The translations under genes and the position numbers were made by a program. From positions 116,759 through 180,758 of the IMG/VR virus record IMGVR_UViG_3300032304_002285: a stretch of DNA of 64,000 bases; one strand, given 5' to 3'. The notes beneath the pieces are model-generated. The model made no database searches. It was not told where the DNA came from and saw only the letters and a list, made by a program, of their open reading frames with translations. This DNA comes from a virus. This document shows positions 13,308 to 63,999 of the stretch, piece after piece (position 1 is the first letter of the stretch; each line of letters starts with the position of its first letter).

Positions 13308-13339
13308 TTTGGATTTCTGACTTCTCTGGGTAATACATA
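13308..13339 (+). promoter_or_regulatory. Promoter candidate TTTGGATTT-N12-GGGTAATACAT
   Basis: Same elements and spacing at 37514-37545; both copies are intergenic, upstream of a gene. Confidence 0.65.
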
Positions 13340-13381
13340 GACGTAAACAAGATTGAGCGGACCATCAAGGGAGATTGAGAA

Positions 13382-28441: not shown

Positions 28442-29162
28442 TCATCCTAGTCCTGAATTAGAAGCAATTGCAATTGCTCTATCTAGGCTTGATGAGGTAA
28501 TTAGGATTTCTAATGGGAGTCCTTTGTCACATACAGAGGTTTATGATTTGGCTGTATGTGTTGGATCGGTTGCTGTTTGCCCTTTAGCAAAGAAGAGGAT
28601 TCTTTTTGTTTTAGGACAGGTTAAGAATCATCCTGTTGGGGATTGGGATGGGATTGTTGTTTCTTCTTCTATGGCTCAGGATTTGGCGTTTAAGAGGTTT
28701 GGTCATGGGTTTAGGTCTTTGGTTGCCCCTCCTCCTATTCTTGGCTTAGAAGCGGGTAGAAGGCGGCTGGTGAATCCAGAAAATGGAATGATTCATCTTT
28801 CCGATGGTGGTTTCAGTTTCCCGGATGATGTTCTTGTTTTTAGGACTTGGGGGAATTGTCAGTTTGATGTTAAGAGGGAATTTTTGTATTCAAATTTAGA
28901 TTTCAATTCAAAGATTAGGGCTGGTTGTGTTGGTTATTATCCGTCTGATATGGAAGATGGGTATGATATTCAGGTTAGGAGACATTTGGCGTTAGGCGGT
29001 TCTGTTATTTGTCGGAGGGATAAGTTGGTATTGGGAGATTTGACTAATAGGTGTTTTGAATTAGGGGAAAAAATTCCGGATAAAATAGAGGCTGTGGATT
29101 GTGTTGGTGATTTGGAAGAATATGTTGATAAGATATTGGTTTTTGTGAGGAGAGTGTTATGA
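28365..29162 (+). CDS. Hypothetical, possibly GT-B-like
   Basis: 265-aa ORF in the glyco cluster; EDGYDIQVRRHLALGGSV resembles a GT-B C-terminal motif. Confidence 0.4.
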   Translation: MPNIPKKVSGLFLGGERTLRIALAFNHPSPELEAIAIALSRLDEVIRISNGSPLSHTEVYDLAVCVGSVAVCPLAKKRILFVLGQVKNHPVGDWDGIVVSSSMAQDLAFKRFGHGFRSLVAPPPILGLEAGRRRLVNPENGMIHLSDGGFSFPDDVLVFRTWGNCQFDVKREFLYSNLDFNSKIRAGCVGYYPSDMEDGYDIQVRRHLALGGSVICRRDKLVLGDLTNRCFELGEKIPDKIEAVDCVGDLEEYVDKILVFVRRVL

Positions 29163-29752
29163 TGGAATGTCTGTCTTACGAATCTTGGTTGAAGATAGTT
29201 GCTCACCCTTTAGATGTTGGTTGTCATGGGGAAAATTTCTATAATCATTATGTGACAAAGTATAAATTAGCAAGGCGATTTGGTCCAAAGAAAATTGGTG
29301 AGATAGGAGTGCGTTTGGGTTATTCTGCTCATGCTTTTTTGTCTGGATCTGGCTTTAGCGTCCCCTATTCTGGTTTTGACGTTGTTGGTGGAGAACATGG
29401 GGGGACTAACATAGCCGGGTTAGAATATGCGAATTCTATTCTGAAGAGAGATTTTCCAAGGTCCAATATTTCTTTGACTAAAGTAGATACCCAATCAATT
29501 AATGAATTCCCAGAAAGCGGGTTCGACTTTTTTCATGTTGATGGAGATCACACTACTGCTGGAGCCTTGCATGATATGCGAATGGTTTGGGGAATAATTA
29601 AAAGCCATGGAATTATGCTTGTTGATGATTATGATTACATAGCAGATGTAAAGAACGCTATTGATGAATTCTTGAAAGAGAAATCTGGGGATATTCTCTA
29701 CAAGGAATATGTAAAGAGTTTTCGTGGTGAAATTCTTATTATAAAGAGATAA
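29159..29752 (+). CDS. Class I SAM methyltransferase (Methyltransf_24-like)
   Basis: EIGVRLGYS, FHVDGDHT...GALHD and LVDDY. Confidence 0.85.
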   Translation: MMECLSYESWLKIVAHPLDVGCHGENFYNHYVTKYKLARRFGPKKIGEIGVRLGYSAHAFLSGSGFSVPYSGFDVVGGEHGGTNIAGLEYANSILKRDFPRSNISLTKVDTQSINEFPESGFDFFHVDGDHTTAGALHDMRMVWGIIKSHGIMLVDDYDYIADVKNAIDEFLKEKSGDILYKEYVKSFRGEILIIKR

Positions 29753-37513: not shown

Positions 37514-37545
37514 TTTGGATTTTCAGGTCTCCTTGGGTAATACAT
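37514..37545 (+). promoter_or_regulatory. Promoter candidate TTTGGATTT-N12-GGGTAATACAT
   Basis: Same elements and spacing as 13308-13339. Confidence 0.65.
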
Positions 37546-37557
37546 GGGTGTAAGAGA

Positions 37558-39953: not shown

Positions 39954-41390
39954 ATGAACATTATCAGAAAAATTGCGCTCAAGAATTTTGAGTCCCATGA
40001 GGACACGGTACTTGACAATCTCTCTCCTGAGTTGAATGCCATTGTTGGTTTAAGCAATTCAGGGAAGTCGGCTATTGTCAGAGCACTTGCACTTATTGCC
40101 TATAACCAATTTGATCCTGAATCAGTTAGGAAGGGCAGTGACAACTGCGAGGTTCAGGTTTGGACAGACAAGGGCAATGTAAAGGTTACACGTGGCAAGA
40201 AGAATCTCTGGGAAGTTACTGATGCTTCCGGTAAGACTTCTTACTTTGATAAAATTGGCAAACAGATTCTTCCTCAGGTTTCGGAAATTCTTGGGTTTGG
40301 TTTGGTAAAGCTGGGTGATGTTGAAATGAAAGTCAATATCATGGATCAGCTTGAGTCTCATTTTATGCTTTCGGAATTTGCGGGGCAAGATGCAACTGGC
40401 TCATTAAGGGCTCAGGTTGTTGATGAAATTTCTGGTCTTTCGGGAATCGAGATGTTAATCCGCGAGGTAAGCTTGGATAATTCTAGGCTTACTCGGGAGA
40501 TCAATCAGCTTGAAGAACAGAATGAAGAGTTGACTAGCAAATTGCATGATGAGAATCTTTTGATTGAGGAGCAACGTGTCCTGAATAAAGTTCAAGAGGA
40601 TATGAAGAATTATGACGAGCTTAAGGAAGCGGTGGTCCTGGTTGAAGGATTGAAGAGCGAGCTTGGTAAGGAACAGGAAAAGATTTCTCAATTGGAAGCT
40701 GAGCTTTCTCAATATCCTGATGAGAAGAAGGCTTTTAGTTTCTTATCGTCAGGGCAAACATTTCTGAATGATGCTGAATCAATGTCTAAGTTTTACAAAG
40801 AATGGCAGGTATCAGAAGCTCAAGCCGTTTCTTTGAATGGTGAGTTAAAGAAGCTTCCTGATAATAGGAAAGCTTTGGGTGTTGTTGATAGTGGTTTAGG
40901 AAAGGTTTCTCGGGGTATGGATGCGCGAAAGTTTTATGATCAGTGGGTAATTTTAGACAGGGATACAAAGTCTTTGAATGTTGAATTAAAGTTGATCCCG
41001 AATGACGTTGCCGCTTTGATTAAGACTAAGCATGCAAATAATTTCATTACGATGGTAGTTAATATGCATGCATTTTTGTCACTGGTGAAAACGTCTCAAG
41101 AACAAGTAGAAAAGCTGACAAGAGATCTTATTAAGTTTGCTGATGAGAAAAAGGCATGGAATATCTTGGAGAAGGTTCCTCTGGTCTTGGAAAAGGCAAA
41201 AAAGATGAAGGCGGATTTGGATGCCTGGAATTCAGTTAAAGCTTTGGAGAAAAATGCTCTTGAATCTTTGAATAGAGAAGATGAATCTTTAAAGAAACAA
41301 ATAAAAGAATATGAGGATGCACGTTCACAGGTTGATGTTTGCCCGATTACGATGAAACCTATTTCTGGGGATTGTTTGCAAAAAGATTAA
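39954..41390 (+). CDS. sbcC: Rad50/SbcC (gp46-like) N-terminal half, ending at the zinc hook
   Basis: LKNFESH, GLSNSGKS, Q-loop MDQLE, coiled coil and terminal CPIT; no signature or Walker B motif. Confidence 0.75.
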   Translation: MNIIRKIALKNFESHEDTVLDNLSPELNAIVGLSNSGKSAIVRALALIAYNQFDPESVRKGSDNCEVQVWTDKGNVKVTRGKKNLWEVTDASGKTSYFDKIGKQILPQVSEILGFGLVKLGDVEMKVNIMDQLESHFMLSEFAGQDATGSLRAQVVDEISGLSGIEMLIREVSLDNSRLTREINQLEEQNEELTSKLHDENLLIEEQRVLNKVQEDMKNYDELKEAVVLVEGLKSELGKEQEKISQLEAELSQYPDEKKAFSFLSSGQTFLNDAESMSKFYKEWQVSEAQAVSLNGELKKLPDNRKALGVVDSGLGKVSRGMDARKFYDQWVILDRDTKSLNVELKLIPNDVAALIKTKHANNFITMVVNMHAFLSLVKTSQEQVEKLTRDLIKFADEKKAWNILEKVPLVLEKAKKMKADLDAWNSVKALEKNALESLNREDESLKKQIKEYEDARSQVDVCPITMKPISGDCLQKD

Positions 41391-41404
41391 TTGGAGAGGA
41401 AGAT

Positions 41405-41842
41405 ATGAAAGAATTTATTGGTATTTCTGTAAAGTTTTTTTTGGCAAATGGGTGTAAGCTGGAAGGTATTGTTTTAGATGATAAGAGTGATCGGGTACTG
41501 ATCAAGGATGAAGAGTCCGGGGATGTTTCCAGGATCTTCAAAAATCATATTGTTCTTTTTGTCCCAGCTTCAGAACCAGAGGCTTTTATTCCCTTGCAGC
41601 TTTTGAGTTGTTCATGTGAGAGCATTGGTTGTCCGGGGGTAAAATATATTACAGAGGGAGAAACCCTTACTCGTAAAATGTTTGATGAGTTTATGAAACC
41701 TTGTCCGAAGCGTTCACAACAATGTCAGTGCCAAACTAAAGGAGATATACGTACTGTTTCTTCAAAGACTTTAAGCAAGACCATTTCGGGGATGATGTTT
41801 GGAGACTATCCAGAAGTAGAGGAGAAAAAGAATGGCAAGTAA
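41405..41842 (+). CDS. Hypothetical (Sm-like N-terminus, Cys-rich C-terminus)
   Basis: VKFFLANGCKLEGIV...IFKNHIVLF; GGAGAGG SD. Confidence 0.45.
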   Translation: MKEFIGISVKFFLANGCKLEGIVLDDKSDRVLIKDEESGDVSRIFKNHIVLFVPASEPEAFIPLQLLSCSCESIGCPGVKYITEGETLTRKMFDEFMKPCPKRSQQCQCQTKGDIRTVSSKTLSKTISGMMFGDYPEVEEKKNGK

Positions 41843-42867: not shown

Positions 42868-44403
42868 ATGACTTGGAGTACGATGATGAGAATTTTAGCT
42901 CGTGAATTACTGAAGCTTGCACGTTGTCTTGTGTCCTCTTCTTCTGAAAAAGAAGTCGAAAGACTTTTAAAAGCTTTTCTTCCTGGGACAATGTTTTCTG
43001 GTCGAGTTCATTCGGTTGGGGGATATAATAGAGACGAGCTACTTGGATTAGAAGCAAAAGATTTAGATCTTGTTGTTGAGCTTCCTTCTGAGAAAGGCAA
43101 GCAAATGCCAGAAGGAGCCAAGAAATTTACTCATTTTGTTTGGCAATCATTCCCTCAAGCTATTCACAAACCTTTTCAGACTGGTGCTGCTTATCCTATT
43201 TGGCAGATGGTTTTTGATGGTGATGTTGAATTCAATGGGGAAGTGTATAAAACGAAAGGTGCTTCTATTGATGTTGCGGATACAATGAAGGAAACATTTC
43301 CTGATCCGACTACCAGACAAAGACAGACTCAATGGGGAACTCTTCAAGAAGATGTTGAGAGAAGAGATTTCACTGTTAACTCTTTGCTCAAGGATATGAC
43401 AACGGGAGAGTTTATTGATTTAACTGGAGTAAGTGTTACAGACATCAAGAAGGGAATCCTTAGAGGGAATCCCATGGTAGATATGGATGACATCTTTACA
43501 AATGATCCATTAAGGATGATAAGACTTGTGCGATTCCAGGCAAAATATGGATGGGATGTTCCGATTAGCGTTCTTAAATCTGTGAAGAGGAATGCTGAAA
43601 GGATTCAGATTGTTTCTGCTGAGAGAATCATGGCAGAGCTTGAGAAGGTGATGAAGCTAGGGAAGCTTGCTCAGGCTATTAAGATGATGAAGGCGATTGG
43701 ATTGCTTAAATATGTAATGCCAGAGGTTCACGCCTTACATGGTGTTAAGCAAAGTCCAGATCATCACTTGGAGGGTGATTGCTTTGCTCATACGATGTTG
43801 GTGTTAAAAGGTGCTCCTCCAACCATTGAAGGGCAATTAGCCGCTTTATTGCATGATATTGGGAAACCCAAGTCTCAGGAGATTTTAGAGGATGGGATTC
43901 ATTTCCATGGTCATGATGAAGTTGGAGCAGGGATAGCAGAGGCAATGTTGCATCGGCTGAAGTTTGACAAAGAAACCATTAGTAGGGTTGTCACAATGGT
44001 TCGGAGTCATATGCGCCCATATCATCTTATTGATTCTTCTGAAAAGGCATTAAGAAAGTTCATTAGAGATCTTGGGGAAGAGATGTCGGATGCTGTGGTA
44101 AGTCTGGCTGATGCTGATGAAGCTGCCTCCCTTGGTCCTCTAGTCCCCCATGGAAGCATTAAGAAGCTTCAGGAACGCTTAAGGCAGGTAAAGGAGTCTC
44201 CGATCAAGGTACAGGGGAAACCTGTCTTAGATGGTCATGAAATCATGAAGCTTTTAGGCATTGGTCCAAAAGATAGAAGTCGTATGCCTGAGATTGGTAA
44301 GGCTCAGAAGTTTCTTTTGGAATTAGCTGATGATTGGGCTTCTCTTGGGAAAGAACTGACTCCTGCTGATGCAATATCAGAATTGAAGAACCAGACTTTC
44401 TAA
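42868..44403 (+). CDS. cca: CCA-adding tRNA nucleotidyltransferase (class II) with HD domain
   Basis: VGGYNRD, DLDL, RRDFTVNSL, DPLRMIRLVRF, SAERI and LLHDIGKP. Confidence 0.92.
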   Translation: MTWSTMMRILARELLKLARCLVSSSSEKEVERLLKAFLPGTMFSGRVHSVGGYNRDELLGLEAKDLDLVVELPSEKGKQMPEGAKKFTHFVWQSFPQAIHKPFQTGAAYPIWQMVFDGDVEFNGEVYKTKGASIDVADTMKETFPDPTTRQRQTQWGTLQEDVERRDFTVNSLLKDMTTGEFIDLTGVSVTDIKKGILRGNPMVDMDDIFTNDPLRMIRLVRFQAKYGWDVPISVLKSVKRNAERIQIVSAERIMAELEKVMKLGKLAQAIKMMKAIGLLKYVMPEVHALHGVKQSPDHHLEGDCFAHTMLVLKGAPPTIEGQLAALLHDIGKPKSQEILEDGIHFHGHDEVGAGIAEAMLHRLKFDKETISRVVTMVRSHMRPYHLIDSSEKALRKFIRDLGEEMSDAVVSLADADEAASLGPLVPHGSIKKLQERLRQVKESPIKVQGKPVLDGHEIMKLLGIGPKDRSRMPEIGKAQKFLLELADDWASLGKELTPADAISELKNQTF

Positions 44404-45688: not shown

Positions 45689-45705
45689 GCACTAGGGAGT
45701 TTCAT

Positions 45706-47028
45706 ATGGACAGGCAGGCAATTAAGTTTCACAAGGGTATGGAGTTTGGTGATTGGCATGTTGTTGGTTATAATCCATTAGTTCGTGATATTGGTGGTGT
45801 GAGTGGTGGGTATGTGAGATTAAAGAATATTTTTTCAGGTAAGGTGATTGAGATTAGTTATAAGGGTGATCGGGAGGTATGGGAGAGCATAGTGGAAGGG
45901 AAACGGATAATTGATCATGATTTAATGAGGGTAACGAATAAGGTGTTGGGTTATATGGGAGAGATGGTTGATAGTAGTGTAATGCCATTTGCTGCCAGTT
46001 TAGCTTCTCGCATTGCTTGTGATATGATTGCATCGAGATTGGCTTGTGAGGAATGTAGTTATTTGCCAGGGGATAAGGGTACGGTGGCAATGAGTAGCAG
46101 ACGGAATTTGATTTCGAGCAGGGTATTAGCTGATACGAAGTATGAGTATGATCCGGAGCATAAGCACAAGCCTGAGGGTCCTGGTTGGAAAGAGACTGGC
46201 CATGGATGGAGTACGAATAAAGAGGATTCTGGGGTAGGGGAATCTGGTGGTAGTCATGTTGAGCAGAATCATGAGGAAGAGAAGCCGAAGGTTGTACAGC
46301 ATTTAAAGGATGAGGAGTTATCTCATCGGGTGAAGTTAAAGAAAGAAGATTTAAAGAAGACCTTAGATGATGGTCATTACAGCATTTTATCTGCTGGTAG
46401 GAATTATCGGGATGAGAAAGAGTCGAAGATGCAACCGACTGACAGTTATTTTCATGATAGGACTTTGGCATTAAGGGATGATTTAGAGAAATCCGGTGTG
46501 AAGTATACAGAGGTTGTTGGAGTTTATGACAGTCTTGAGCCGAGTTTTATGGTATTGCACAATTACGAGAAAGATTTTGACGAGAAGACGGCAAGGAATT
46601 ACATGGTTCATCATAATGGTGTAAATGATAAGCATGTGATGAAGACGGTGAACAGATTAGGACAGAAATACAATCAGGATAGTGTATTGCACAGTTTGAA
46701 GGGTAGGAATACGATGGTATTTACTACTGGGGAGCACAGGGGTAAGCATTGTAGCGGGAAGGGTTGGAAGGAAACACCTGATGCTGATAATTTTTACACA
46801 GACATTCCTGTAAAGGACACTGAGAATACGAAAGTGTCATTGGATATTGATGAGTGTTTCAAGAGGAAGTTATTGGCTAGTGAGTTGCGGCGTGTAAAGA
46901 GGTTATTGGCTAAGGATAAGTCTCCATATAGACACGATCCGAATCATGATAATAGACCACCTGGGAGTTATTGGGTTGAGACAGATAAAGGTTGGAGTCA
47001 GTCTGATTATTTAAGTGATTTTGATTAG
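45706..47028 (+). CDS. Multidomain protein with a central SAM-lyase-like domain flanked by two 24-aa repeats
   Basis: YSILSAGRN...VVGVYDSLEPSFMV...RLGQKYNQDSVL; repeats Y..DP.H..[KR]P.G..W.ET..GWS. Confidence 0.55.
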   Translation: MDRQAIKFHKGMEFGDWHVVGYNPLVRDIGGVSGGYVRLKNIFSGKVIEISYKGDREVWESIVEGKRIIDHDLMRVTNKVLGYMGEMVDSSVMPFAASLASRIACDMIASRLACEECSYLPGDKGTVAMSSRRNLISSRVLADTKYEYDPEHKHKPEGPGWKETGHGWSTNKEDSGVGESGGSHVEQNHEEEKPKVVQHLKDEELSHRVKLKKEDLKKTLDDGHYSILSAGRNYRDEKESKMQPTDSYFHDRTLALRDDLEKSGVKYTEVVGVYDSLEPSFMVLHNYEKDFDEKTARNYMVHHNGVNDKHVMKTVNRLGQKYNQDSVLHSLKGRNTMVFTTGEHRGKHCSGKGWKETPDADNFYTDIPVKDTENTKVSLDIDECFKRKLLASELRRVKRLLAKDKSPYRHDPNHDNRPPGSYWVETDKGWSQSDYLSDFD

Positions 47029-47038
47029 GAATTTTTTT

Positions 47039-47461
47039 ATGAACTCTAATAAGATAGCGATGAGATTGGCAATGGAGTTAGCTCCTGTGTGTCAGGTAGA
47101 GAGATTGATTGATGGGACTGGTGTTCCTTTATCTGAGAACGAGCTAAAAGAGGTTTGGGGCAATGTTTTAGATTATTTAGGGTATGAGGACGTTGGGGAA
47201 TGGATGGATATAATAGGGTTTAAGGATGCTGTTGATAGGAATGGTCAGGAGTTGAGTGGGATTGAGAAATGGTTATGTGATGAGGTAATGGAATTAGCCG
47301 ATGATGCTTTAGCTTCTGGTTATCATGAGATGTCCGGGTTAGGGATAAGTTATGTTACGAAGAAAATTGCTTGTGATAGTTGTCCTCCGATGAAAAGAGT
47401 AGGCGGTTTAAACATATTAGCTAGAATTGTTCCTGTTTTAAAAAGCCGAAGGATGAGGTAA
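47039..47461 (+). CDS. Hypothetical protein
   Basis: AGGA SD; coupled to the upstream gene. Confidence 0.55.
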   Translation: MNSNKIAMRLAMELAPVCQVERLIDGTGVPLSENELKEVWGNVLDYLGYEDVGEWMDIIGFKDAVDRNGQELSGIEKWLCDEVMELADDALASGYHEMSGLGISYVTKKIACDSCPPMKRVGGLNILARIVPVLKSRRMR

Positions 47462-47468
47462 TAAGAAT

Positions 47469-47987
47469 ATGAGAAGGATAAGATCAAGGGTAGAGGATGT
47501 ATTAAAGCGGATAGACACTACTATTCGCAATCCTACGATGCGTGATGAGATGAAGGAGAAAGTAATTGATTATAATGAAACGAAAGATGACAGGAAGGAT
47601 TTGAGTTTAAGGGATTCAGAGGTTTTGTATAGGGATGTTGATTATGGCGATGAGCTTCCTTTATCGAAGAAGAGGGATGTAGAGATTGATTGGAGTTCTC
47701 ATGCTGAGTACCGGAGTGAGTTGAGGGATGTATCTCCTGAGAAGGTTAATCAGACGATAGTAGAGAGACTGAAAGATCACTTAAGGGTACCTGAGCATAA
47801 GAAGGTGCAGTTTAAGGAGCCTGGGACTGGGACGATGGTAGTTGATTTTGATACGAAGAGTAATCCTGCTGAGGCAAGAGTTATTACGGTATGGGCGAGT
47901 TTAGTAGATAGAGTTGCTGATTTTGGGTATAATGACAAGATGGTGTTTTCAGAGATTAGGCGTATTTCTTCTTTGCTTGAAGGGTGA
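47469..47987 (+). CDS. DUF4258-like (BECR RNase fold) protein
   Basis: IDWSSHAEYRSELRDVS...ARVITVW. Confidence 0.45.
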   Translation: MRRIRSRVEDVLKRIDTTIRNPTMRDEMKEKVIDYNETKDDRKDLSLRDSEVLYRDVDYGDELPLSKKRDVEIDWSSHAEYRSELRDVSPEKVNQTIVERLKDHLRVPEHKKVQFKEPGTGTMVVDFDTKSNPAEARVITVWASLVDRVADFGYNDKMVFSEIRRISSLLEG

Positions 47988-47990
47988 GTA

Positions 47991-48578
47991 ATGGATTTCA
48001 CAGCATATAGTCATAGTTGTTTGATGGCATTGGTACCTGAGCATATAGCTGCAAGGGTAAGTGCTTTTTCTTTTGCGATACCTGATGATGATATTTATTT
48101 ACTAGATGACGAAGAGCATGGTAGAAGTGATGAGATTCATTGTACTGTAAAATATGGGTTGCACACAAGTAATCCGGATGAGGTAAGGGGTGTGTTGAAG
48201 GGTTTTGATATGATACCGGCTGTATTGGGTGGGGTTACTGTATTTAACAATGCTGATTATATTGTATTAAAGATTGACATTGAGAGTTCTAAGTTAGAAG
48301 AGATGTACAAGGTAGTGTGTTCAAAGTTAAAGCATACTGATTTTTATCAAGGGTTTAAGCCTCATATCACGATAGCTTATTTGAATCAGCGGGAAGATGA
48401 TCCACATTATTATGAGAGATATATGTGTAATGTTTTTCGTGGTGTTGAGATTTTGTTTGACACGATGATTTTTTCTACTTCCTATGGGGATAGGACTTAT
48501 ATTGATTTATGTGGTTGGGGGAGTGATTCATTAAAGGTTGCGAAATTTAATAGAGTAGTTGAGAAGATTTGCAATTAA
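47991..48578 (+). CDS. 2H phosphoesterase (Acb1 / LigT-like)
   Basis: Two HxT motifs: IHCTVKYG and FKPHITIAY. Confidence 0.8.
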   Translation: MDFTAYSHSCLMALVPEHIAARVSAFSFAIPDDDIYLLDDEEHGRSDEIHCTVKYGLHTSNPDEVRGVLKGFDMIPAVLGGVTVFNNADYIVLKIDIESSKLEEMYKVVCSKLKHTDFYQGFKPHITIAYLNQREDDPHYYERYMCNVFRGVEILFDTMIFSTSYGDRTYIDLCGWGSDSLKVAKFNRVVEKICN

Positions 48579-51000: not shown

Positions 51001-53282
51001 ATTATCCAAAAGTTTCAGTTATTTTATCTACATATAGTCGGAATCATGGCGACAAGCATTGTTCTAATCTTTTATGTAGAGCGATTGATTCCATTTTGAA
51101 TCAGACGTTCAGGGATTTGGAATTGATATTGATAGATGATGCATCGAAAGATGGGACTGAGGGGATTTGCAGGGAGTATGCGGAGCAGGATGAGAGGGTT
51201 CGGTATATAAGACATGAGAAGAATTCGGGGAAGCCTGCTGTTCGGTATAATGACGGGATGAAGTTAGCGAAGTCTAATTATTTCTTGTTTATGTTTGATG
51301 ATGACATGTGGTTGCCGAATTGCGTTCAGGATCTTTATGATGAGATTAGGAAAGATAACAGTGTTGGGATGGTTTATGGGTTAGCTGATTTTATAAATAC
51401 AGGGAGTGGAGTTACTGTTGAAGGTTTTGGTGAGCCATGGAATTATGAGAAATTAAAGGATGAGGGGAATTATTTATGTAATTTGTCCGTGATTTTGAAG
51501 AGAGATGTAATAAATTGTGTAGGTGGTTATGATGAGTCTCCTTTATTAAGAAGGCTTTGTGATTGGGACTTATGGGTAAGAATTGGGTCTCAATTTAAGG
51601 TAGTTCGTCTTGAGAGGGTAATTGGGAAGTGTTTTCATTCACAGGGAGACAGTATAGGATCTACAGTTGCACTTTCTGTTGATGATTTGAGAAAGATCAG
51701 GTTGATTCAAAGAGGCAAAAGGGCAGTTAGGCTTAAAGGCGAGATGAAGAAGATGAATAAATTAGTTTTTGCTTTTACGGAACATGATGCTGTTTTAACT
51801 CGTTGGAATATTATTTATATTGCCAATGCATTAAAAGAAGAGGGTATTAATGTCTCTGTTGTTGACGTGAGAACGGAAGAAGGGAAGTCTGTTTGTAGGG
51901 ATTCTGATACTGTTATTTTTTATAGAACAAATGATCAGTCTTCTTTGAATTTGCTAAGAGAATTAAAGACTGAAGGTAAGAGCGTTTTTTATTCCATTGA
52001 TGATTATATATTTCAGCCGGATTGCAAGATAATTGAAGAAGATAATGGTTTAATAAAGTTATTTATTGATGAGTGTGATGGGGTTATTTCTCCGAGTAAA
52101 TATCTCTTGAGTAAAATTCCTGATAACAAGAGGAAGATTTACAGGAAGAATTTTTTAGGGAAAGAGGCGAAAGATTTATTTATTAATGGTGTGGTTGCGA
52201 AATCTGATGAGTTTGTGATTGGGTGGCTTACTGGTATTAACAGACACGAGATGGATTTTTTTGTAAGGGATTATTTGAAGTTTTTGGACAAGGCATTGAA
52301 TAAAGAGAAGGTAAGGTTTGTTTGTTTTGGTAAGCATAGGCTTGGGAAGTTAAAGAATATTAAGGTTGAGGAGTTGGATTATTTTGAGCTAGAAGATTGG
52401 AAGGGGTTATATTCAAAATATCGGGAGTTGGGGTTGGACGTGGTTATTAATCCCGTGAAGGATGATGATGAGTTTTTCAGGTGTAAGTCTGAGCTTAAAT
52501 ATATTGAGGCTGGTGCTCTTGGGACTCCATTAATTGTAACGAAGATTCAACCTTTTGTTGATGTTGTTAAAGATGGCGTTACTGGTTTGTTTGCCAATAC
52601 TCCTGAAGAATTTGTTGAAAAAACTTTATTACTTTTTCAACAAAGAGATTTGTTAAAGGATATGAGTAAAAGCGTTCTTGATGATATTGAAAGGGAATAT
52701 GACGAATCAAAGATAGCAAAGGAATTGCTTGCTGAGTTGACTTCAGTAAAGAGTCGGGTTGTCGAGAGTGCTAAACCAGATGTGGATTTTAAGGAAGAGA
52801 TGGAAGACGTTGTTGATTCAGTGAAAGAGACTGTTGTTGAGAAAGTATTTAATTGGGTTTTAGGGAATTTGTCAGTTTCGGATGATGGGATTGTTGGTCC
52901 TATTTATCCTTTGGCTGAGTTCAAGATGGAATTATCATCTTGTCCTTTTGGTTTAGTTTCTGAGTTGCATGTTTTGGGTGCAACCTATCAGAAGTTTGTC
53001 AGGAATAGTGCTGATTATCGGGTTTATGTAAACAATGAGAAGGTAAGAGAGGGGAAGATTTCTGCTCATGGGATGAAGGATAATACTTGGTGGAAGATGG
53101 TGTTTGACCCGATTAAGGTTGAAGAGGGTGATTCCTTAAGTTTTGTTATTATCCATAGGGACGTTGGAACGAATATTACTTTTAGGACTTGTGAGGATAA
53201 GAAATTTGGGATTGCTAAGGTTGGGGCAAGGGTGGTTCCTCCTGTTGCCATGAGGATTGTGATTGATCAAGGGGAGAAATGA
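50997..53282 (+). CDS. GT2 + GT4-like fusion glycosyltransferase with extra C-terminal domain
   Basis: VSVILSTY, DDASKDGT, MFDDD; FFRCKSELKYIEAGALG. Confidence 0.88.
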   Translation: MNYPKVSVILSTYSRNHGDKHCSNLLCRAIDSILNQTFRDLELILIDDASKDGTEGICREYAEQDERVRYIRHEKNSGKPAVRYNDGMKLAKSNYFLFMFDDDMWLPNCVQDLYDEIRKDNSVGMVYGLADFINTGSGVTVEGFGEPWNYEKLKDEGNYLCNLSVILKRDVINCVGGYDESPLLRRLCDWDLWVRIGSQFKVVRLERVIGKCFHSQGDSIGSTVALSVDDLRKIRLIQRGKRAVRLKGEMKKMNKLVFAFTEHDAVLTRWNIIYIANALKEEGINVSVVDVRTEEGKSVCRDSDTVIFYRTNDQSSLNLLRELKTEGKSVFYSIDDYIFQPDCKIIEEDNGLIKLFIDECDGVISPSKYLLSKIPDNKRKIYRKNFLGKEAKDLFINGVVAKSDEFVIGWLTGINRHEMDFFVRDYLKFLDKALNKEKVRFVCFGKHRLGKLKNIKVEELDYFELEDWKGLYSKYRELGLDVVINPVKDDDEFFRCKSELKYIEAGALGTPLIVTKIQPFVDVVKDGVTGLFANTPEEFVEKTLLLFQQRDLLKDMSKSVLDDIEREYDESKIAKELLAELTSVKSRVVESAKPDVDFKEEMEDVVDSVKETVVEKVFNWVLGNLSVSDDGIVGPIYPLAEFKMELSSCPFGLVSELHVLGATYQKFVRNSADYRVYVNNEKVREGKISAHGMKDNTWWKMVFDPIKVEEGDSLSFVIIHRDVGTNITFRTCEDKKFGIAKVGARVVPPVAMRIVIDQGEK

Positions 53283-55783
53283 TAATGGATATTAATATTG
53301 GCGATGGTGTTGCCGTAATGAGTGCTGAGAGTCGGAAGAATGAGATTCCGAAAATAGCTACCATGTTGGTATATGGTGCTGTTTATTTTAAAAATTGGTG
53401 CAGGAATAAGGATGCTGTTAATGTTATTTTGAACGGGGATTCTATTAAGATTCACGTTGCTGATTTTGAATTAGCCAATGAGATTTCTCAAGAGATTAAG
53501 GGGAATTACATTGATTTGAATGGAGGGTCTTGTTGTTTAAATTCTCCTACTGAGGTATTGAAGGTGATTGGTATGGCTCAGTCTTTGTATGCTCGTAAGA
53601 CTGATACAAGAGCCGGGAAGAAGGGCATAGTGATGTTATCGGATAATGATGGTTGTGGTTTTTGGAGGATGCGGCTTCCGGCAAGGTTTATTGAGCGGGA
53701 TGGATGGTATGCGGACATTACTTCTGCTCAGGTTGATTTTAAATCATTGTTGGAATATGACACTATTTTTGTTCAGAAGTTTCATGAATGGGATGCTTAT
53801 TACATTTTAGAGAAGCTGAAGAAAGCTGGTAAGCGGATTGTGTATGATATTGACGATGACATTTTTAATATTCCTGTGGACAATCCAGCGGCAAAGATTA
53901 TCAAGAAGGATCAACAGTTTGCTGCTTTGGAGACGATGAAGCTGGCTGACGTGGTTACAGTTTCGACTGATTACCTTAAGGATATGATTCAGGCTGGTCT
54001 TGGTCCGAAGGGGAAGGTTGAGGTTATTCCTAATGCTTTGGATTTGGTTGGGATGACTTCTGTTAAGGAGTGTGGGAGTCCGGATGGGTATAAGCGGATT
54101 TTCTGGCAGGGTGGGACGAGTCATGCTGAGGATTGGCATGTATGTATTCAGGCAATTGAGGGTATAATGAAGGAAGATGAGAGGGTTCGGCTGGTGTTGT
54201 TGGGTTATCTTCCTCCTGTGGTAATGGAGATGGTGAATCGGAATCCGGGGATGAATCTTCGGGTTGAGCACATGGGTTTTAGTGAGCCTGAGACTTATTA
54301 TCAGATGATCAAGTATGTTCGTGCTGAGGTTGGGATTTGTCCTTTGACCAATATTCAGTTTAACAATGGGAAATGTGTTGACTCATCAATGAGAGTATCA
54401 ACTGATTGTGGAATTATAGAGATTGGGAATGTAAAAAAAGACATGAAGGTGTGGAGGGATGGTTGGAAAAAAGTAGAGGGTGTATTTATAGATTCAAAGA
54501 AAGAAGGATTGGAGATTGTAACAAAACATGGATATTGTTTGCGTCTTTCTCAAGAGCATAGGATGTCTGTAGAGGGTGAATGGAAGATTGCGAAAGATTT
54601 TGTTATTGGAGATAAAATTGATATGAGTTTTGAGGATTCGGCGGTTAAGGAGAATGTAGTCTGCCCATGGCCTTCGGATAGTAGAATGAATAAGGGTGGA
54701 AGAAAGAGAAAGTTAGGGTTTAAAGGATATGGACCATCTGACCCATACGCCTTTTTGAAAGCGGAAGATGGTCCTAAAATAGAAATAACGCCAAGATGGG
54801 GAAGGATACTTGGTGCATATGTAGGGGATGGCTCTGTTGGGCAATCAACTACAATGCAAATATCATGTGATGGGATAGATCAAGATTGGATAGACCTCCT
54901 GATGGAGGACTTCAGAAAATTTGGATTTTCACCTCATACAGAATCAATTGTAACCTTTGATGGAACACCGACAAGACGGCGTGGGGTCCGAGTTTCAAAT
55001 TCTCATCTTGCTCGGTTTTTTGAAAGCTTGGGTTTATTGCGATACAGAGAAAATGGAGTACCGATTCGCGTTGTTAAGGTTCCTGACGTTATTTGGAGTT
55101 CACCAAAAGCAGTGATTGCTGAATTTTTGTCTGGATATTTTGAAGCAGACGGGACAAGCTATCAATGCGCGGTTAGCGTTGTCTCAAAAAGTCGAGATTT
55201 TTTAATGGACATTCATAGGTTGCTGTTGGTATTTGGAATTAAGTCTCGATTCTTTGAAAGAACGCATTCTTGTCAGACGTGCAAGAGAACTTATTTTAAC
55301 ATAACGTTGGCAAGAGATGCTGTAGATGTTTTCAGAAGAGAGATTGGGTTTAAGTCAAAGCGGAAAAAAGAAAAGTTGAATATTATATCGTCAAAAAAAC
55401 ATTCAAATTCTTTTAGATCAATGGAATTGTCTGATGAAATAGTTTCAATAAAACCGTATGAAATTACTCCCGTTGATATTCAAGTGCAGGGGGAAGAGTT
55501 TGTATTGTCTGGTTTTATTTCACATAATAGTAATTTAAAATATTTAGAGAACACGGTGATAGGTGTTCCTACGATTGCTTCTAATCGTGTTCCTTACTCG
55601 GTGATTAGGAATGGTGTTGATGGGATGTTGGTGAATGACAATGAGTGGTATAATGCATTAAAGGAGTTGTTGGATGATAAGGAGAAACGGAAGGGGATGT
55701 TGATTGAGGCGAGGAAGACTGTAAAGAATAGTTTTGATATTCGTCAGGTATCAGAACAATGGGCAGATGTACTTTGTAAATAA
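53279..55783 (+). CDS. GT4-like (GT-B) glycosyltransferase containing an intein
   Basis: GCGFWRMRLP, YDIDDD; spliced junction FNNGK|SNLKYLE. Confidence 0.85.
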   Translation: MIMDINIGDGVAVMSAESRKNEIPKIATMLVYGAVYFKNWCRNKDAVNVILNGDSIKIHVADFELANEISQEIKGNYIDLNGGSCCLNSPTEVLKVIGMAQSLYARKTDTRAGKKGIVMLSDNDGCGFWRMRLPARFIERDGWYADITSAQVDFKSLLEYDTIFVQKFHEWDAYYILEKLKKAGKRIVYDIDDDIFNIPVDNPAAKIIKKDQQFAALETMKLADVVTVSTDYLKDMIQAGLGPKGKVEVIPNALDLVGMTSVKECGSPDGYKRIFWQGGTSHAEDWHVCIQAIEGIMKEDERVRLVLLGYLPPVVMEMVNRNPGMNLRVEHMGFSEPETYYQMIKYVRAEVGICPLTNIQFNNGKCVDSSMRVSTDCGIIEIGNVKKDMKVWRDGWKKVEGVFIDSKKEGLEIVTKHGYCLRLSQEHRMSVEGEWKIAKDFVIGDKIDMSFEDSAVKENVVCPWPSDSRMNKGGRKRKLGFKGYGPSDPYAFLKAEDGPKIEITPRWGRILGAYVGDGSVGQSTTMQISCDGIDQDWIDLLMEDFRKFGFSPHTESIVTFDGTPTRRRGVRVSNSHLARFFESLGLLRYRENGVPIRVVKVPDVIWSSPKAVIAEFLSGYFEADGTSYQCAVSVVSKSRDFLMDIHRLLLVFGIKSRFFERTHSCQTCKRTYFNITLARDAVDVFRREIGFKSKRKKEKLNIISSKKHSNSFRSMELSDEIVSIKPYEITPVDIQVQGEEFVLSGFISHNSNLKYLENTVIGVPTIASNRVPYSVIRNGVDGMLVNDNEWYNALKELLDDKEKRKGMLIEARKTVKNSFDIRQVSEQWADVLCK
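54374..55528 (+). mobile_element. Intein (385 aa) with LAGLIDADG homing endonuclease
   Basis: Starts CVDSSMRV, ends FISHN followed by Ser; LGAYVGDGS and FLSGYFEADG. Confidence 0.93.
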
Positions 55784-58853: not shown

Positions 58854-61800
58854 ATGTATAAGTATGAAGATGTTTTGGCTAATTGCACTAAATATTTTGA
58901 TGGTGATGAGTTGGCTGCATCTGTTATTGTTTCAAAGTATTTGTTAAAGGATTCAAATGGGGATTTTCTAGAAAAAGATCCTGATGACATGTTCAGGAAT
59001 CGGATTGTTCCTGAGTTTAAGAGGACAGAGGATAAATATGTGAATCCTTTGCCTTTTGATGAAATTTATGGATTGATGAATGGGTTTAGGCGTGTTCTTC
59101 CTCAGGGTTCTCCTTTGTATGGGATTGGGAACAATGAGAAGTTGATGTCCCTCGGAAATTGTTTTGTTAAGGGAACAGAGGTTCTAACAAGGGATGGTCA
59201 GAAAAAAATTGAGGATGTTAAGATTGGTGATTTTGTCCTAACGAATGGCGGGACTTGGGAGAAGGTTTCTCAGTTGCACAATAGTCCTCTTGATGGACGG
59301 CAATTGTATGAATTGAAGTGTTTTAAAACACCGGGTTTTGCTTGTACTGGCAATCACGAGTTCTTTTCTATTAGTAAGGAGCAGATTGCTTTTGGTTTGA
59401 AGCCCAAATACAATGCAACCGAATACCTTCGGGTGGGAGACTACATTGCTCTTCCTAAGAGGACAGATGCCGGAAAGATTGGCTTTGAGATTGATCTTCG
59501 GGATATTTTCAGTTTGGCATGTATAGAGATTGAAGGTTGTGCTTATGACGTTGCTCATGATGAAAAGAAGAAGGAGACTTCTTTTACATCAAAGTGGGAC
59601 AATGCTGGTACGACTTGTAGGAAACAACATAATCCAGTGAAGACAAATTGGATTGTTGATGAAGACTTTTCTTATTTTCTTGGGTTGTGGTTCGGGGATG
59701 GTTGTGTCTTTAGTCAGAACACCAAAAGAAACCTTGGGAAGAGAGAGCGGAAATCCAGGAAGGATAAGGTTTGTGATAATCCTATAAAGAAGAGTAAGAA
59801 CCGGATTCGGGGAATCACTTTCACTTTTGGGACTCACGAGGATAAGCTAATTAAGTTTGTATCAGAGTTTGGGGAAAAGTGTTTTGGTATCGTTGGAAAT
59901 ATCAATAACAGCAATGCTTCCAATACTACACAAATTACTTTTCATAGTGCTGTTATTGGATATGCCTTTGAAAGTCTTTTTGGTCGGTATTGTGATGGGA
60001 AAAGGCTTCCTTCTGACATCTATGAGTGGGATGGAGTTTTAGTTAAGAAGCTGATTCAGGGTTTGATTGATTCAGATGGGACCATTACCAAGGATGGTGG
60101 GATTTATGTCACTTTAGCCAATACTGAATTGGTGAAGAGTTTCTATTACCTTTGTCGTTCTTTTGGTATTCCTGCTGGTCTTCGCCCAATGGGTTCCAAA
60201 ATTTCTCAGATTAACTTTCCATGCTCTAATATCTTTGCTGAAAACTCTCTTAAGTCTTATGAGGATAAGAGGGTTGAGAATGGTTTTAACAAGGCTCTTT
60301 CTCCGGCAAAGGACCTTATTGAAATTGATGGTAGACTCTTTGCGAGGATTGACAAAAAGGCATTATATAATGGCTCAGATGAAAGAGTCTACAATATCGG
60401 GGTTGACAATGACCATTCCTATGTGGTAAATGGTGTTGTCTGCAAGAACTGTTTTGTTGTGGAATCTCCGGAGGACAGCTATGGAGGAATTTTAAAGACA
60501 GATCAAGAGTTGGTTCAGATCATGAAGCGGCGTGGGGGAGTTGGTACTGATATTAGTACTATTCGCCCAAAGAATTTGCCAGTAAACAATGCTGCTATTA
60601 CGACTGATGGTATTGAAGTCTTCATGAAGAGGTTCAGTAATACGACTCATGAGGTTGCACAGAATGGACGTAGGGGTGCATTGCTTCTTGGATGCCATTG
60701 TTTGCATCCTCAGATTGGGACTTTCATTACAGTAAAGAGGGATAGGAAGAAGGTAACTGGTGCAAACATTTCGGTAAAATGGACAGATGAATTTTTAAAG
60801 GCTGTTGAGAATGATGGGGAAGTTGTTTTAAGATTTCCTGTTGATAGTAAACCTGAAGATGCGATTTTTAGGGAGACTGTCAAGGCTAAGGAGATTTGGA
60901 CTGAGTTTGTTAGATCGGCTCATGCTTCTGCTGAGCCAGGGTGTTTCTTTTGGGATACTGTTATCCGCCAGTCCATTTCTGATTGTTATGCTTCCGATGG
61001 TTTTGCTACTATTTGTAGTAATCCATGCGGTGAGATTCTTATGAGCATGAATAATTCTTGTCTTTTGATGGCTTTGAATTTGGTTGGCTTTGTGAAGGAT
61101 ATGTTTAAGAAATCGGCTAAGTTTGACTTTGATGAGTTTGGGGATGTTGTCCGAAAGGCGACTCGTTTGATTGATGACTTGGTTGATCTTGAGATTGAGA
61201 AGAACGAGAAAATTCTTGAGAAGATAAAGAATGATAAGGAGTCTGATTCCATTAAGCAGGTTGAGATGAATCTGTGGAAGAATGTCATTCATTACTTAAA
61301 GAAGGGCAGGCGGGTTGGTTTGGGTGTAACGGGTCTTGCTGATATGCTTGCTATGATTGGGATCAAGTATGATTCTGATGAGTCTATGAAATTCATTGAT
61401 AATCTGTTCAGCATTTTCCATGCTGAGAATTTCCGGGAGCAGGCGATTTTGGCTAAAGAGCGTGGTGCTTTTGAGTGTTGGAATTGGGAGAAGGAAAAGG
61501 ATTGTCATTACATTAAAATTCTTCCTACTGATGTTCAGGAATTGGTTAGGCTTAATGGAAGAAGGAATATTTCTTCTACTACTTGTGCTCCGGTTGGGAG
61601 TCTTTCTTGCTGTACTCAGACTAGTAGTGGGATTGAGCCGGTGTTCAGAAGGTCTTATCAGAGACGGAAGAAGCTTTCTTTTGAAGAGGAGAAGAAGGGC
61701 ATTAAGCCTGATGATATTGATACCGATGGGAACAAGTGGATTTCCTTTGAGGTGTTTCATGAGGGTTTGAAGAAGTGGATGGAGGTTACAGGGAAGACAG

Positions 61801-62660
61801 ACGTTAAGGAGAGTCCATATTATGGTTGTGACTCTTCTGAGATTTCTTGGAGCAATCGGATTAAAATCCAGGGAATTATTCAGAAGTACATTACGCACAG
61901 CATTAGTTCAACGATTAATTTGCCCAAGGATACTACTGAGGAAGTGATTTCGGCAATTTATCTTGAGGGCTGGAAAGCTGGGTGTAAGGGGTTGACTGTT
62001 TATCGGGATGGTTGTCGGGATGGTGTTTTGATTTCAGAAGAGGTTCAGGCAGAGAAGAAGGGTGTGGATAAGGAAGGGAGACCCTTAGAGATTTCGGTTA
62101 CTCCTGCTCCTAAGCGTCCTGAATCTTTACCTGTTCATGTTTATTCTTACAATCTAAAGGGAGCAAAGTGGATTTTCTTTGTGGGTTTGTTTAATGGGAA
62201 GCCATATGAGATTTTCGGAGGCAAGGAAGAGTTTATTACTTTGCCGAAGAAATACATTAAGAGCAATGAGACGAAGAATGTTTGGATTCTTAAGGAGAGG
62301 AAGGAGAAGGGTTGTTGTCAGTATTCTGTAGTTCTCGGGTCTCTTGATAAGACCAATGAGGATTATCAGAAGATTGATGACATTGCCAGTCTTTTCCCTG
62401 CTGAGATGGGGACTCCTACTCGATTGATTTCTGCTTTATTGCGCCATGGGATGCGTATTCAGGATATCATTGAGCAGTTGAAGAAAGTTCCTCAAGAGGA
62501 TTCGATGTTCACTTTTGAGTCTGGGGTTCGTCGTGTTTTGAAGAATTATGTTTTGGATGGTGTTCAATTAAAGGAGAAGTGTAAGGAGTGCAGTGGGGAC
62601 ATGGTGTATGAGAATGGTTGTGCTTCTTGTAAGAATTGCGGTTATTCAAAGTGTTCGTGA
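58854..62660 (+). CDS. nrdJ: Class II (B12-dependent) ribonucleotide reductase with intein
   Basis: GSPLYGIG, GN|CFV, RRGGVG, SNPCGEI, TTCAPVG, TSSGIEP and terminal CxxC...GC..C..CG.SKC. Confidence 0.95.
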   Translation: MYKYEDVLANCTKYFDGDELAASVIVSKYLLKDSNGDFLEKDPDDMFRNRIVPEFKRTEDKYVNPLPFDEIYGLMNGFRRVLPQGSPLYGIGNNEKLMSLGNCFVKGTEVLTRDGQKKIEDVKIGDFVLTNGGTWEKVSQLHNSPLDGRQLYELKCFKTPGFACTGNHEFFSISKEQIAFGLKPKYNATEYLRVGDYIALPKRTDAGKIGFEIDLRDIFSLACIEIEGCAYDVAHDEKKKETSFTSKWDNAGTTCRKQHNPVKTNWIVDEDFSYFLGLWFGDGCVFSQNTKRNLGKRERKSRKDKVCDNPIKKSKNRIRGITFTFGTHEDKLIKFVSEFGEKCFGIVGNINNSNASNTTQITFHSAVIGYAFESLFGRYCDGKRLPSDIYEWDGVLVKKLIQGLIDSDGTITKDGGIYVTLANTELVKSFYYLCRSFGIPAGLRPMGSKISQINFPCSNIFAENSLKSYEDKRVENGFNKALSPAKDLIEIDGRLFARIDKKALYNGSDERVYNIGVDNDHSYVVNGVVCKNCFVVESPEDSYGGILKTDQELVQIMKRRGGVGTDISTIRPKNLPVNNAAITTDGIEVFMKRFSNTTHEVAQNGRRGALLLGCHCLHPQIGTFITVKRDRKKVTGANISVKWTDEFLKAVENDGEVVLRFPVDSKPEDAIFRETVKAKEIWTEFVRSAHASAEPGCFFWDTVIRQSISDCYASDGFATICSNPCGEILMSMNNSCLLMALNLVGFVKDMFKKSAKFDFDEFGDVVRKATRLIDDLVDLEIEKNEKILEKIKNDKESDSIKQVEMNLWKNVIHYLKKGRRVGLGVTGLADMLAMIGIKYDSDESMKFIDNLFSIFHAENFREQAILAKERGAFECWNWEKEKDCHYIKILPTDVQELVRLNGRRNISSTTCAPVGSLSCCTQTSSGIEPVFRRSYQRRKKLSFEEEKKGIKPDDIDTDGNKWISFEVFHEGLKKWMEVTGKTDVKESPYYGCDSSEISWSNRIKIQGIIQKYITHSISSTINLPKDTTEEVISAIYLEGWKAGCKGLTVYRDGCRDGVLISEEVQAEKKGVDKEGRPLEISVTPAPKRPESLPVHVYSYNLKGAKWIFFVGLFNGKPYEIFGGKEEFITLPKKYIKSNETKNVWILKERKEKGCCQYSVVLGSLDKTNEDYQKIDDIASLFPAEMGTPTRLISALLRHGMRIQDIIEQLKKVPQEDSMFTFESGVRRVLKNYVLDGVQLKEKCKECSGDMVYENGCASCKNCGYSKCS
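59160..60449 (+). mobile_element. Intein (430 aa) with LAGLIDADG endonuclease, ending Lys-Asn
   Basis: Starts CFVKGTEV, ends VVCKN followed by Cys; FLGLWFGDG and LIQGLIDSDG. Confidence 0.95.
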
Positions 62661-63261: not shown

Positions 63262-63327
63262 AAATGTGAAGATGTTTGGATTTTTGAAGGATTTTAGTAA
63301 TAAGAGACAGAAAGGGAATGGTTGTTA

Positions 63328-63999
63328 ATGAAGAAAATGATTTATGTGCCTAAGGGTAGGGCTTTGGAGTATAGTCAGTTGGCTTGTGATCTGATTGAGG
63401 GTTGTGAGCACAAGTGTAAGTATTGTTATTGTCCGAAGACTTCAGGAGTTTCTCCTGAGGATTGGGCTTCTGATTTGAAGATTAGGGATGGATTGGTTGA
63501 TAGCTTCAAGAAGGAAGCGGTTAAGCATCGGGGAGAAGAGAAGGAAATTTTGTTCAGTTTCAAATCAGACATGTATCAGTCTGAAGAGACGGCTTCTTTG
63601 ATGGGGGAGATTCTTCCTATTTGTGAAGAAAACAAGTTAAAGATTCAGGTTTTGACGAAGGCTGGATTTCGTCTTGCAAAGCACTTTCATTATTTTGTGA
63701 GGAACAATTGGAAATTTGGAAGTACAATTATTTTTGTATCGGAGAAATTGAGAGAGCAGTGGGAACCCGGTGCTCCTTCCATTCAGAGTCGTATGGATGC
63801 GGTGAAGAAGGCAAGTGATTTGGGGATTTTCACTTGGGTTTCGATTGAGCCAGTTGTTGATACGGAAGAGGCTTTTGAGGTTATGATTGCTTTGAAGCCT
63901 TATGTTTCGTTGTGGAAGGTTGGGAAGTTAAATCATTTTCCTGAGATAGAGTCAAAAATAGACTGGAAAAGGTTTTTAATGGAAACCAAGAATATTCTT
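63328..63999 (+). CDS. Radical SAM protein (SPL/photolyase-like), runs off the window end; absent from the ORF track
   Basis: MKKMIYVPKGRALEYS...GCEHKCKYCYCP (CxxxCxxC), LTKAG and SIEPV. Confidence 0.85.
   Translation, partial: MKKMIYVPKGRALEYSQLACDLIEGCEHKCKYCYCPKTSGVSPEDWASDLKIRDGLVDSFKKEAVKHRGEEKEILFSFKSDMYQSEETASLMGEILPICEENKLKIQVLTKAGFRLAKHFHYFVRNNWKFGSTIIFVSEKLREQWEPGAPSIQSRMDAVKKASDLGIFTWVSIEPVVDTEEAFEVMIALKPYVSLWKVGKLNHFPEIESKIDWKRFLMETKNIL

Follow-up and report, generated by a model that had tools for sequence, protein, structure and literature searches.

A T3-type SAM-lyase-like domain between duplicated modules in a 440-residue phage protein

The 64,000-nucleotide (nt) stretch of phage DNA considered here, called the window below, covers positions 116,759 to 180,758 of the IMG/VR record IMGVR_UViG_3300032304_002285, a 180,758-bp contig that CheckV estimates to be 51% complete. 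Within this single strand-biased stretch, an open reading frame (ORF) encodes a protein of 440 amino acids (aa), which we refer to as P0001. The S-adenosylmethionine (SAM) lyases familiar from T7-like phages are small proteins that are made early and counter restriction and bacteriophage exclusion (BREX), and the locus raises the question of whether a domain of this kind also resides in a larger protein, and what such a protein might do. The original prediction proposed a domain resembling the T3 SAM lyase (T3 SAMase) inside P0001, and profile, fold and residue conservation now back this proposal. We consider residues ~213-385 to be a T3-type SAM lyase domain that most likely cleaves SAM and counters host defences by SAM depletion, and we assign a probability of roughly 55% to this reading as a whole.

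Sequence profiles, fold and conserved residues

P0001 matches the Pfam family S-AdoMet_lyase (PF23780) with 22.8 bits and an expect value (E) of 9.6e-5, such that residues 251-345 align with profile positions 17-99; in a genome-wide search with this family the protein scores 23.8 bits. Nine close homologues were detected in a set of 5.8 billion proteins, all of which match PF23780, and eight of which match DUF3293. A HMMER search of 1.84 billion cluster representatives found 359 clusters (50% identity) at E <= 1e-3. Nearly all of these align only to residues ~205-390 of P0001, and the proteins range in length from 77 to 1800 aa. Among 65 large relatives, PF23780 is recognized in 52, with a best E of 1.1e-11, and DUF3293 in 30. 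Several relatives that are tied to P0001 at E 1e-20 to 1e-55 exceed the curated PF23780 cut-off of 28 bits, with scores of 36.9, 33.1, 32.8 and 29.5 bits. A search of PHROGs with P0001 yielded an unnamed family only. No match at E 1e-5 was found by tblastn of P0001 against 50,697 cultured phage records, and a search of cultured phages with the domain alone, at E up to 1, gave only weak matches, in Myxococcus phage Mx1 and cyanophage P-RSM6.

The fold of the domain was modelled with AlphaFold2 for residues 200-398, using a 46-sequence alignment as input. The model has a predicted local distance difference test (pLDDT) value of 91 and a predicted template modelling score of 0.87, and contains nine strands and two long helices. 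The original prediction had suggested structural comparison with T3 SAMase and Svi3-3, and these two enzymes head the Foldseek list of PDB structures, with the T3 SAM lyase (7OCK, 8BB1) and Svi3-3 (6ZM9, 6ZNB) occupying ranks 1-6. A SAM-AMP lyase (9GAD, 9GAB) and another SAM lyase (9LQE, 9LQD) appear lower in the same list. Alignment with VIA to T3 SAM lyase 8bb1_E gives Z 12.6, with a root-mean-square deviation of 3.4 A over 132 of 147 residues and 20% identity, and alignment to 7ock_J gives Z 12.2. The match spans the whole T3 chain, from residue 3 to residue 153. Svi3-3 scores Z 7.0 and 6.4, and unrelated ferredoxin-like folds all score 6.8 or less. Among the BFVD neighbours of the model are annotated SAM hydrolases of T7-like phages, and those in the ESM-Atlas belong to clusters of DUF3293 and of S-AdoMet_lyase. 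Phage proteins described as polyvalent or 'structural' also occur among the neighbours in these two collections.

The strings on which the original prediction was based are all present in P0001: YSILSAGRN at residues 225-233, VVGVYDSLEPSFMV at 270-283, VNRLGQKYNQDSVL at 315-328, WKETP at 354-358 and FYTDI at 364-368. They extend over residues 225-368, which is exactly window 46375-46810, and the T3 motifs that had been quoted for comparison agree with the actual sequence of T3 gp0.3 (NC_003298 901-1356). These coordinates, given earlier for the domain, are correct as the span of the motifs, but the whole domain is wider, as listed in Table 1.

The motifs are in register with those of the T3 family when the P0001 family is compared by hhalign with a 16-member T3 family profile (E 0.0028). 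SAGR falls on SAFR, G272-V-Y274 on G55-C-Y57, E278 on E68, and NQDSVL on EQDCVL. In family alignments of 46 and 36 sequences, no variation is seen at G272, Y274 and Q324, and conservation of E278 is 90% or more. The alignment of the 65 large relatives likewise shows the expected order of residues, with Gly, Glu and Gln (Q324) invariant and Tyr nearly so. An hhalign comparison with the single T3 sequence misplaced G-x-Y on T3 G43/Y45/E49 (E 0.08), and was superseded by the profile-profile alignment. The few conserved residues with which the Svi3-3 family holds SAM are G56, Y58, E69 and Q104(-E105), and the E69Q substitution lowers the activity of Svi3-3 by ~4500-fold (Guo et al., PMC7877911). 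In T3, where E68 and Q94 are the catalytic pair, the E68Q/Q94A mutant is catalytically dead (bioRxiv 10.1101/2023.02.27.530186). The (near-)invariance of G-x-Y and of Glu/Gln across more than 100 diverse relatives of P0001 argues for selection on a ligand site.

Comparison with characterized enzymes places the domain with T3 gp0.3 (PDB 8BB1, 7OCK; PF23780). Both have a single-chain, nine-stranded barrel with two outer helices, and it is this barrel, unlike the trimer of Svi3-3, that the P0001 model exhibits. They also have in common the motif order S-A-x-R, G-x-Y, E, Q-D-[SC]-V-L, [WF]-x-E-x-P, in which the catalytic pair E68/Q94 corresponds to E278/Q324. However, sequence identity is only ~20%, and P0001 carries a ~20-residue loop insertion (model residues 86-105, where pLDDT is lower) as well as extra C-terminal strands. 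Whereas T3 gp0.3 is a free protein of 152 aa encoded by the first early gene of a T7-like genome, the P0001 domain is embedded in a chain of 440 aa, and its gene lies in a large phage among genes for RNA and DNA metabolism. Svi3-3 (PDB 6ZM9, 6ZNB) resembles P0001 in its core fold and in having counterparts of the conserved G56, Y58, E69 and Q104-E105. Svi3-3 forms a PII-like trimer whose active sites lie between the subunits, whereas the P0001 domain, as modelled, resembles the closed barrel of the T3 type.

Proposed activity and alternative readings

If the domain is an active SAM lyase, it would cleave SAM to 5'-methylthioadenosine and homoserine lactone, presumably by holding SAM in a reactive conformation, as is the case with Svi3-3 and the T3 enzyme. 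The lowered SAM level would then starve SAM-dependent host defences, namely type I restriction-modification (R-M) and BREX.

Several points weigh against this reading. The PF23780 score of P0001 itself (22.8-23.8 bits) is under the 28-bit cut-off, and the profile-profile comparison that puts the motifs in register gives a probability of only 10.8%. Sequence searches of the PDB with P0001, with a 9-sequence profile and with a 46-sequence profile found no SAM-lyase match, so the likeness to SAM lyases of known structure was found by fold comparison only. The residue equivalences derive from profile alignment and a global structural match, not from residue-level superposition. Moreover, the Glu/Gln pair is retained in lyases that are specific for SAM-AMP. 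Wholesale SAM depletion would also be expected to harm the phage's own SAM-dependent proteins. The original prediction had raised this conflict, and the proteins concerned are indeed encoded: two radical SAM proteins and one class I methyltransferase with a Methyltransf_24 domain (Table 1). The DNA methylase families PF01555, PF00145 and PF02086, and also Methyltransf_25, were not found on the 51%-complete contig.

The single-sequence searches of the PDB were empty and the single T3 sequence was matched by hhalign with E 0.08 only, which would fit an accidental coincidence of short motifs in a protein that has a widespread ferredoxin-like fold and is unrelated to SAM lyases. Against such an accident, the structural match of Z 12.6 runs over the whole T3 chain and is well above that of all unrelated folds, the order of the motifs is kept along the full length, and relatives of P0001 do exceed the Pfam cut-off. 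The resemblance of the domain to T3 SAM lyase exceeds chance, and a chance resemblance is effectively refuted.

A different substrate has to be considered, because a Glu/Gln pair common to SAM lyases and SAM-AMP lyases leaves the substrate unfixed. SAM-AMP (a conjugate of SAM and adenosine monophosphate) is a second messenger of type III CRISPR systems with CorA. P0001 might cleave SAM-AMP, or a sulfonium nucleotide related to it, and would then be a signal-degrading anti-CRISPR protein like the candidate AcrIIIB4. Known SAM-AMP lyases are members of this superfamily that retain the Glu/Gln pair, and they include a phage protein that carries an N-terminal fusion (PMC12255297; PMC10600005). In relatives of P0001, most partner domains are enzymes that act on nucleotides or signals (InPase 9, NUDIX 6, RelA/SpoT 5, mCpol 1, 2H 1). 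A 2H/Acb1-like gene lies two genes downstream of P0001, and the relative P0021 is a fusion of a 2H domain with the lyase-like domain. An enzyme specific for SAM-AMP would, in addition, spare the phage's own SAM users.

However, the SAM-cleaving T3 enzyme is by far the best structural match, at Z 12.6, whereas the SAM-AMP lyase structures 9gad and 9gab are only weakly similar to the P0001 model (Foldseek E 0.05-0.06, or 0.054-0.061 in full; template modelling score 0.24-0.39) and fall outside the 50 best VIA matches. SAM-AMP lyases prefer SAM-AMP over SAM, and their T-loop and B-loop contact the AMP moiety. The Clostridium botulinum enzyme (CorA-associated, PDB 9GAD/9GAB) forms a PII-like trimer in its solved structure, and a trimer of this kind is predicted for the phage enzyme, whereas the P0001 domain is modelled as a T3-type single-chain barrel. 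We therefore judge cleavage of a SAM conjugate to be unlikely, although it is the foremost alternative to the cleavage of SAM.

The fold might alternatively be retained without a lyase role in vivo. The domain could bind SAM or a nucleoside, could bind a protein (for example as an inhibitor of the host's SAM synthetase), or could be a structural passenger of a capsid-associated protein. T3 SAMase provides a precedent in having a catalysis-independent function through binding of MetK, and such a role would be in keeping with the sub-threshold Pfam score of P0001 and with the fact that the related family DUF3293 has no known function. We regard this as distinctly improbable, given that the catalytic Glu/Gln and G-x-Y residues are invariant or nearly so in the many diverse relatives. 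In addition, the MetK contacts of T3 have no counterpart in P0001. These contacts are made by an N-terminal tail (residues M1-N9) and by a loop (Q103-T104-H105). The domain is internal in P0001 and so has no free N-terminal tail, and the stretch aligned with the loop reads S-L-K-G-R-N. The features that bind MetK are a trait of the T3 lineage and do not define the family. On the preferred reading of SAM cleavage, P0001 probably acts by catalysis alone, because the tail is absent.

Bracketing modules and possible virion delivery

Two copies of a short module bracket the lyase-like domain in P0001. In each, a helix is followed by the motif Y-x-[YH]-D-P-x-H-x3-P-x-G-x2-W-x-E-T-x2-G-W-S, whose G-W...G-W stretch is modelled as a beta-hairpin (pLDDT ~80 for the hairpin of module 1). 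The local alignment score of this internal repeat is 85, compared with 25.8 +/- 4.7 in shuffled sequences (z 12.6), and none of 500 shuffles reaches 85. Within the genome, the motif occurs only in P0001. Elsewhere, an unrelated protein, P0010, has this module as its N-terminal leader, in which it follows a clear amphipathic helix. Module 1 is 55% identical to this leader (E 1e-10), and module 2 is 49% identical to P0010 residues 1-49 (E 2e-11). Weak atlas leads and a DGHHR string tentatively suggest that the cargo of P0010 is ParB/sulfiredoxin-like. A search with the P0010 leader (residues 1-55) for further carriers returned P0010 itself only. The region that precedes module 1 in P0001 (residues 1-131) matched no Pfam or PHROG family, gave no usable atlas match, and is unaligned in homologues; by sequence comparison, it has no homologues outside P0001 itself.

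Small homologues of P0001 carry similar leaders, which consist of a tag-like helix plus either the bracketing-module motif or F-x-M-T-E-x-E-W-x2-Y-x3-H-P. This second type of leader, more fully F-x-[MF]-T-E-x-E-W-x2-Y-x3-H-P-x-A after an amphipathic helix, is present in the proteins P0022, P0052, P0078, P0007, P0018 and P0028. It occurs on small SAM-lyase-like homologues and also on one other protein of the genome (G000:C1:79331-80572). In other, unrelated lineages, the lyase-like domain is itself bracketed by duplicated short motifs of very different sequence, whose repeats stand out from shuffled sequences with z 7.5 in locus L027 (5857-6867), z 11.9 in L037 (5866-6870), and z 10-20 in P0044, P0138 and P0110. 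Examples of these bracket motifs are SYYTR..NGK.E.VHD.R, GH.Y..RTGSPGHY.Y.YP and AGP.IGPRGGKW.

The original prediction called P0001 'tagged', and this description applies in a looser sense only. The genome encodes an amphipathic 'address tag' of the KLAKELLKIARDLVS type in 14 strict copies, all on the + strand. A hidden Markov model (HMM) was built from these copies, which score 19.6-26.3 bits against it. The looser sense is that of the bracketing modules in P0001, in which the helices ahead of the two hairpin motifs are tag-like only. A canonical tag (RILARELLKLARCLVS, 20.7 bits) is present at the N-terminus of an enzyme with a CCA-adding/poly(A) polymerase head and an HD domain, encoded at window 42868-44403 (+).

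Relatives of the domain occur at 69 loci in IMG/VR, and their host ORFs in the 35 best-matching of these loci encode proteins of 181 to 1826 aa. Neighbouring ORFs at 19 loci (112 in all) most often belong to the portal (6), terminase (4), major capsid (3), MuF (2), LPD1 (2) and InPase (2) families. The gene for the relative comes directly after one for a portal (L027), a MuF protein (L036), a prohead-protease fusion (L017), a NUDIX+LPD1 polyvalent protein (L016) or an SNF2 helicase (L032). The domain is found fused to InPase, NUDIX, RelA/SpoT, Zeta toxin, Topo I, ParB, mCpol, GNAT and 2H domains, and once to a portal. Such domains and contexts are hallmarks of polyvalent proteins, for which injection together with the DNA is predicted (Iyer et al. 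2017, PMC5512222). By definition, a polyvalent protein combines at least two domains that differ in biochemical activity and occurs in a setting of phage packaging or conjugation. Virion delivery, which the original prediction raised as a possibility, is plausible at the level of the family, since relatives adjoin portal and MuF genes or lie within polyvalent proteins.

Relatives with the lyase-like domain reach 1800 aa and adjoin portal, MuF and LPD1 genes, and many of them satisfy the definition of polyvalent proteins. P0001, in contrast, has one recognizable enzymatic domain and no head genes nearby. There is a precedent for a SAM lyase in particles, as a 414-aa 'SAM hydrolase', ORF6, was detected by mass spectrometry (19 peptides) in purified virions of cyanophage S-CREM2 (PMC10665884). 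ORF6 resembles P0001 in being a large protein annotated as a SAM hydrolase, which is a likeness by annotation, and in BFVD the P0001 domain has its best structural match in a protein of S-H34, which belongs to the cyanophage cluster of S-CREM2.

Other observations count against delivery. The P0001 gene sits among RNA and DNA metabolism genes, and the portal family PF04860 was not found on the 51%-complete contig. The canonical tag was not detected in P0001, whose best score with the tag HMM is -2.8 bits, at residues 390-394. A recurrent promoter-like motif of the genome, TTTGGATTT...GGTAATACATAG, is absent upstream of the gene. The gene contexts of the family hint weakly that P0001, or a processed fragment of it, may be carried in the virion, and we regard delivery of P0001 as possible, with the odds against it. 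If the modules are portable signals for addressing or processing, they could serve in capsid loading, as cut sites, or both, and would free a ~20 kDa lyase in the new host before the phage's genes are expressed. This proposal draws on the module's presence in P0010, with its apparently ParB-like cargo, and on the duplicated brackets of other lineages, some of them in genes directly behind a portal gene, but it is a doubtful one. Release of the lyase before expression would spare the phage's later SAM-dependent enzymes.

Delivery of the enzyme with the DNA would mean that SAM depletion starts before host defences act. It would also call for a different way of testing SAM-dependent defences (type I R-M, BREX and possibly SAM-AMP signalling) against large phages from the environment, and the bracketing modules could provide a handle for finding other packaged effectors. 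The T3-type domain is in any event also a widespread module, with 359 clusters that include larger phage proteins, polyvalent proteins and head-module proteins. SAM lyases are already known, as is the virion-associated SAM hydrolase of S-CREM2 (PMC10665884). What is new is the architecture of P0001, in which an N-terminal region of no known family precedes a domain bracketed by duplicated helix-hairpin modules, together with numbers for how commonly the domain occurs as a module of polyvalent and head-module proteins. The polyvalent-protein catalogue (PMC5512222) makes no mention of adenosylmethionine or methionine, and a link of the domain to polyvalent proteins or head modules was not found stated in that catalogue or in the literature searched. 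P0001 adds breadth and a new architecture, not a new principle.

Genomic surroundings

A 233-nt spacer precedes the P0001 gene, which is the first of four co-directional genes in a tight run (Table 1). The spacer matched no Rfam family, its predicted folding is not unusual (z -0.76), and no sigma-70-like site above chance was detected in it. Upstream of P0001 are genes for the CCA-adding/poly(A) polymerase-HD enzyme, RuvC and an SMC-like ATPase, and downstream are genes for sugar-modifying enzymes and a B12 ribonucleotide reductase. The gene that immediately follows P0001 (window 47015-47461, +) probably starts at an internal Met (MNSNKIAMRLAMELA...), and its N-terminus is tag-like, although it is left unscored by the tag HMM.

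Table 1. Positions of P0001, its parts and genes discussed in the text. Coordinates are those of the window unless preceded by G000:C1.
Feature	Position	Strand	Details
Whole P0001 gene	45706..47028	+	440 aa; ATG start
Ribosome-binding site of P0001, AGGGAG	45694-45699	+	6 nt 5' of the ATG
N-terminal region, residues 1-131	45706..46098	+	small beta unit and long helices in a low-confidence model (pLDDT 30-68)
Bracketing module 1, residues 132-169	46099..46212	+	helix RRNLISSRVLAD and YEYDPEHKHKPEGPGWKETGHGWS; predicted beta-hairpin 161-170
Acidic, low-complexity linker, residues 170-212	46213..46341	+	pLDDT low at 173-184
T3-type SAM-lyase-like domain, residues 213-385	46342..46860	+	nine strands, two long helices
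G272-V-Y274-D-S-L-E278	46519..46539	+	counterparts of T3 G55, Y57, E68 and of Svi3-3 G56, Y58, E69
Q324-D325	46675..46680	+	counterparts of T3 Q94-D95 and of Svi3-3 Q104-E105
Bracketing module 2, residues 386-431	46861..46998	+	helix KRKLLASELRRVKRLLAKD and YRHDPNHDNRPPGSYWVETDKGWS; predicted hairpin 423-432
Three packed downstream genes (148, 172 and 195 aa)	47015..48578	+	overlaps or gaps of 3-8 nt
2H phosphoesterase (LigT/Acb1-like), last gene of the run, 195 aa	47991-48578	+	PF13563 34.9 bits; Acb1 26.0 bits (cut-off 27)
Radical SAM gene, PA0069/Rv2578c-like	G000:C1:610-1437		contig end
Radical SAM gene, PA0069/Rv2578c-like, paralogue	63322-63999 (3' open)		other contig end
Methyltransf_24 domain (class I methyltransferase)	29159-29752 (ORF)		

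The recurrent promoter-like motif is bipartite, consisting of TTTGGATTT, a gap of 12-13 nt, and GGTAATA(C/G)ATAG. It lies in intergenic regions on the + strand, at window 13308-13350 and 37514-37556 and at ~20 further sites in the genome, including G000:C1 45508, 48259, 49611, 50459, 51028, 73344, 73804 and 75116.

Side observations concern three other genes of the window, all on the + strand. A 167-aa ORF (window 41339-41842) has a weak Hfq-like match (E 0.0017; 18.4 bits, under the cut-off). In an 834-aa protein (window 53279-55783), an intein-like stretch at about residues 570-750 precedes a glycosyltransferase-like C-terminal end, and in the B12-dependent ribonucleotide reductase (window 58854-62660), residues 512-533 match the C-terminal splicing region of inteins.

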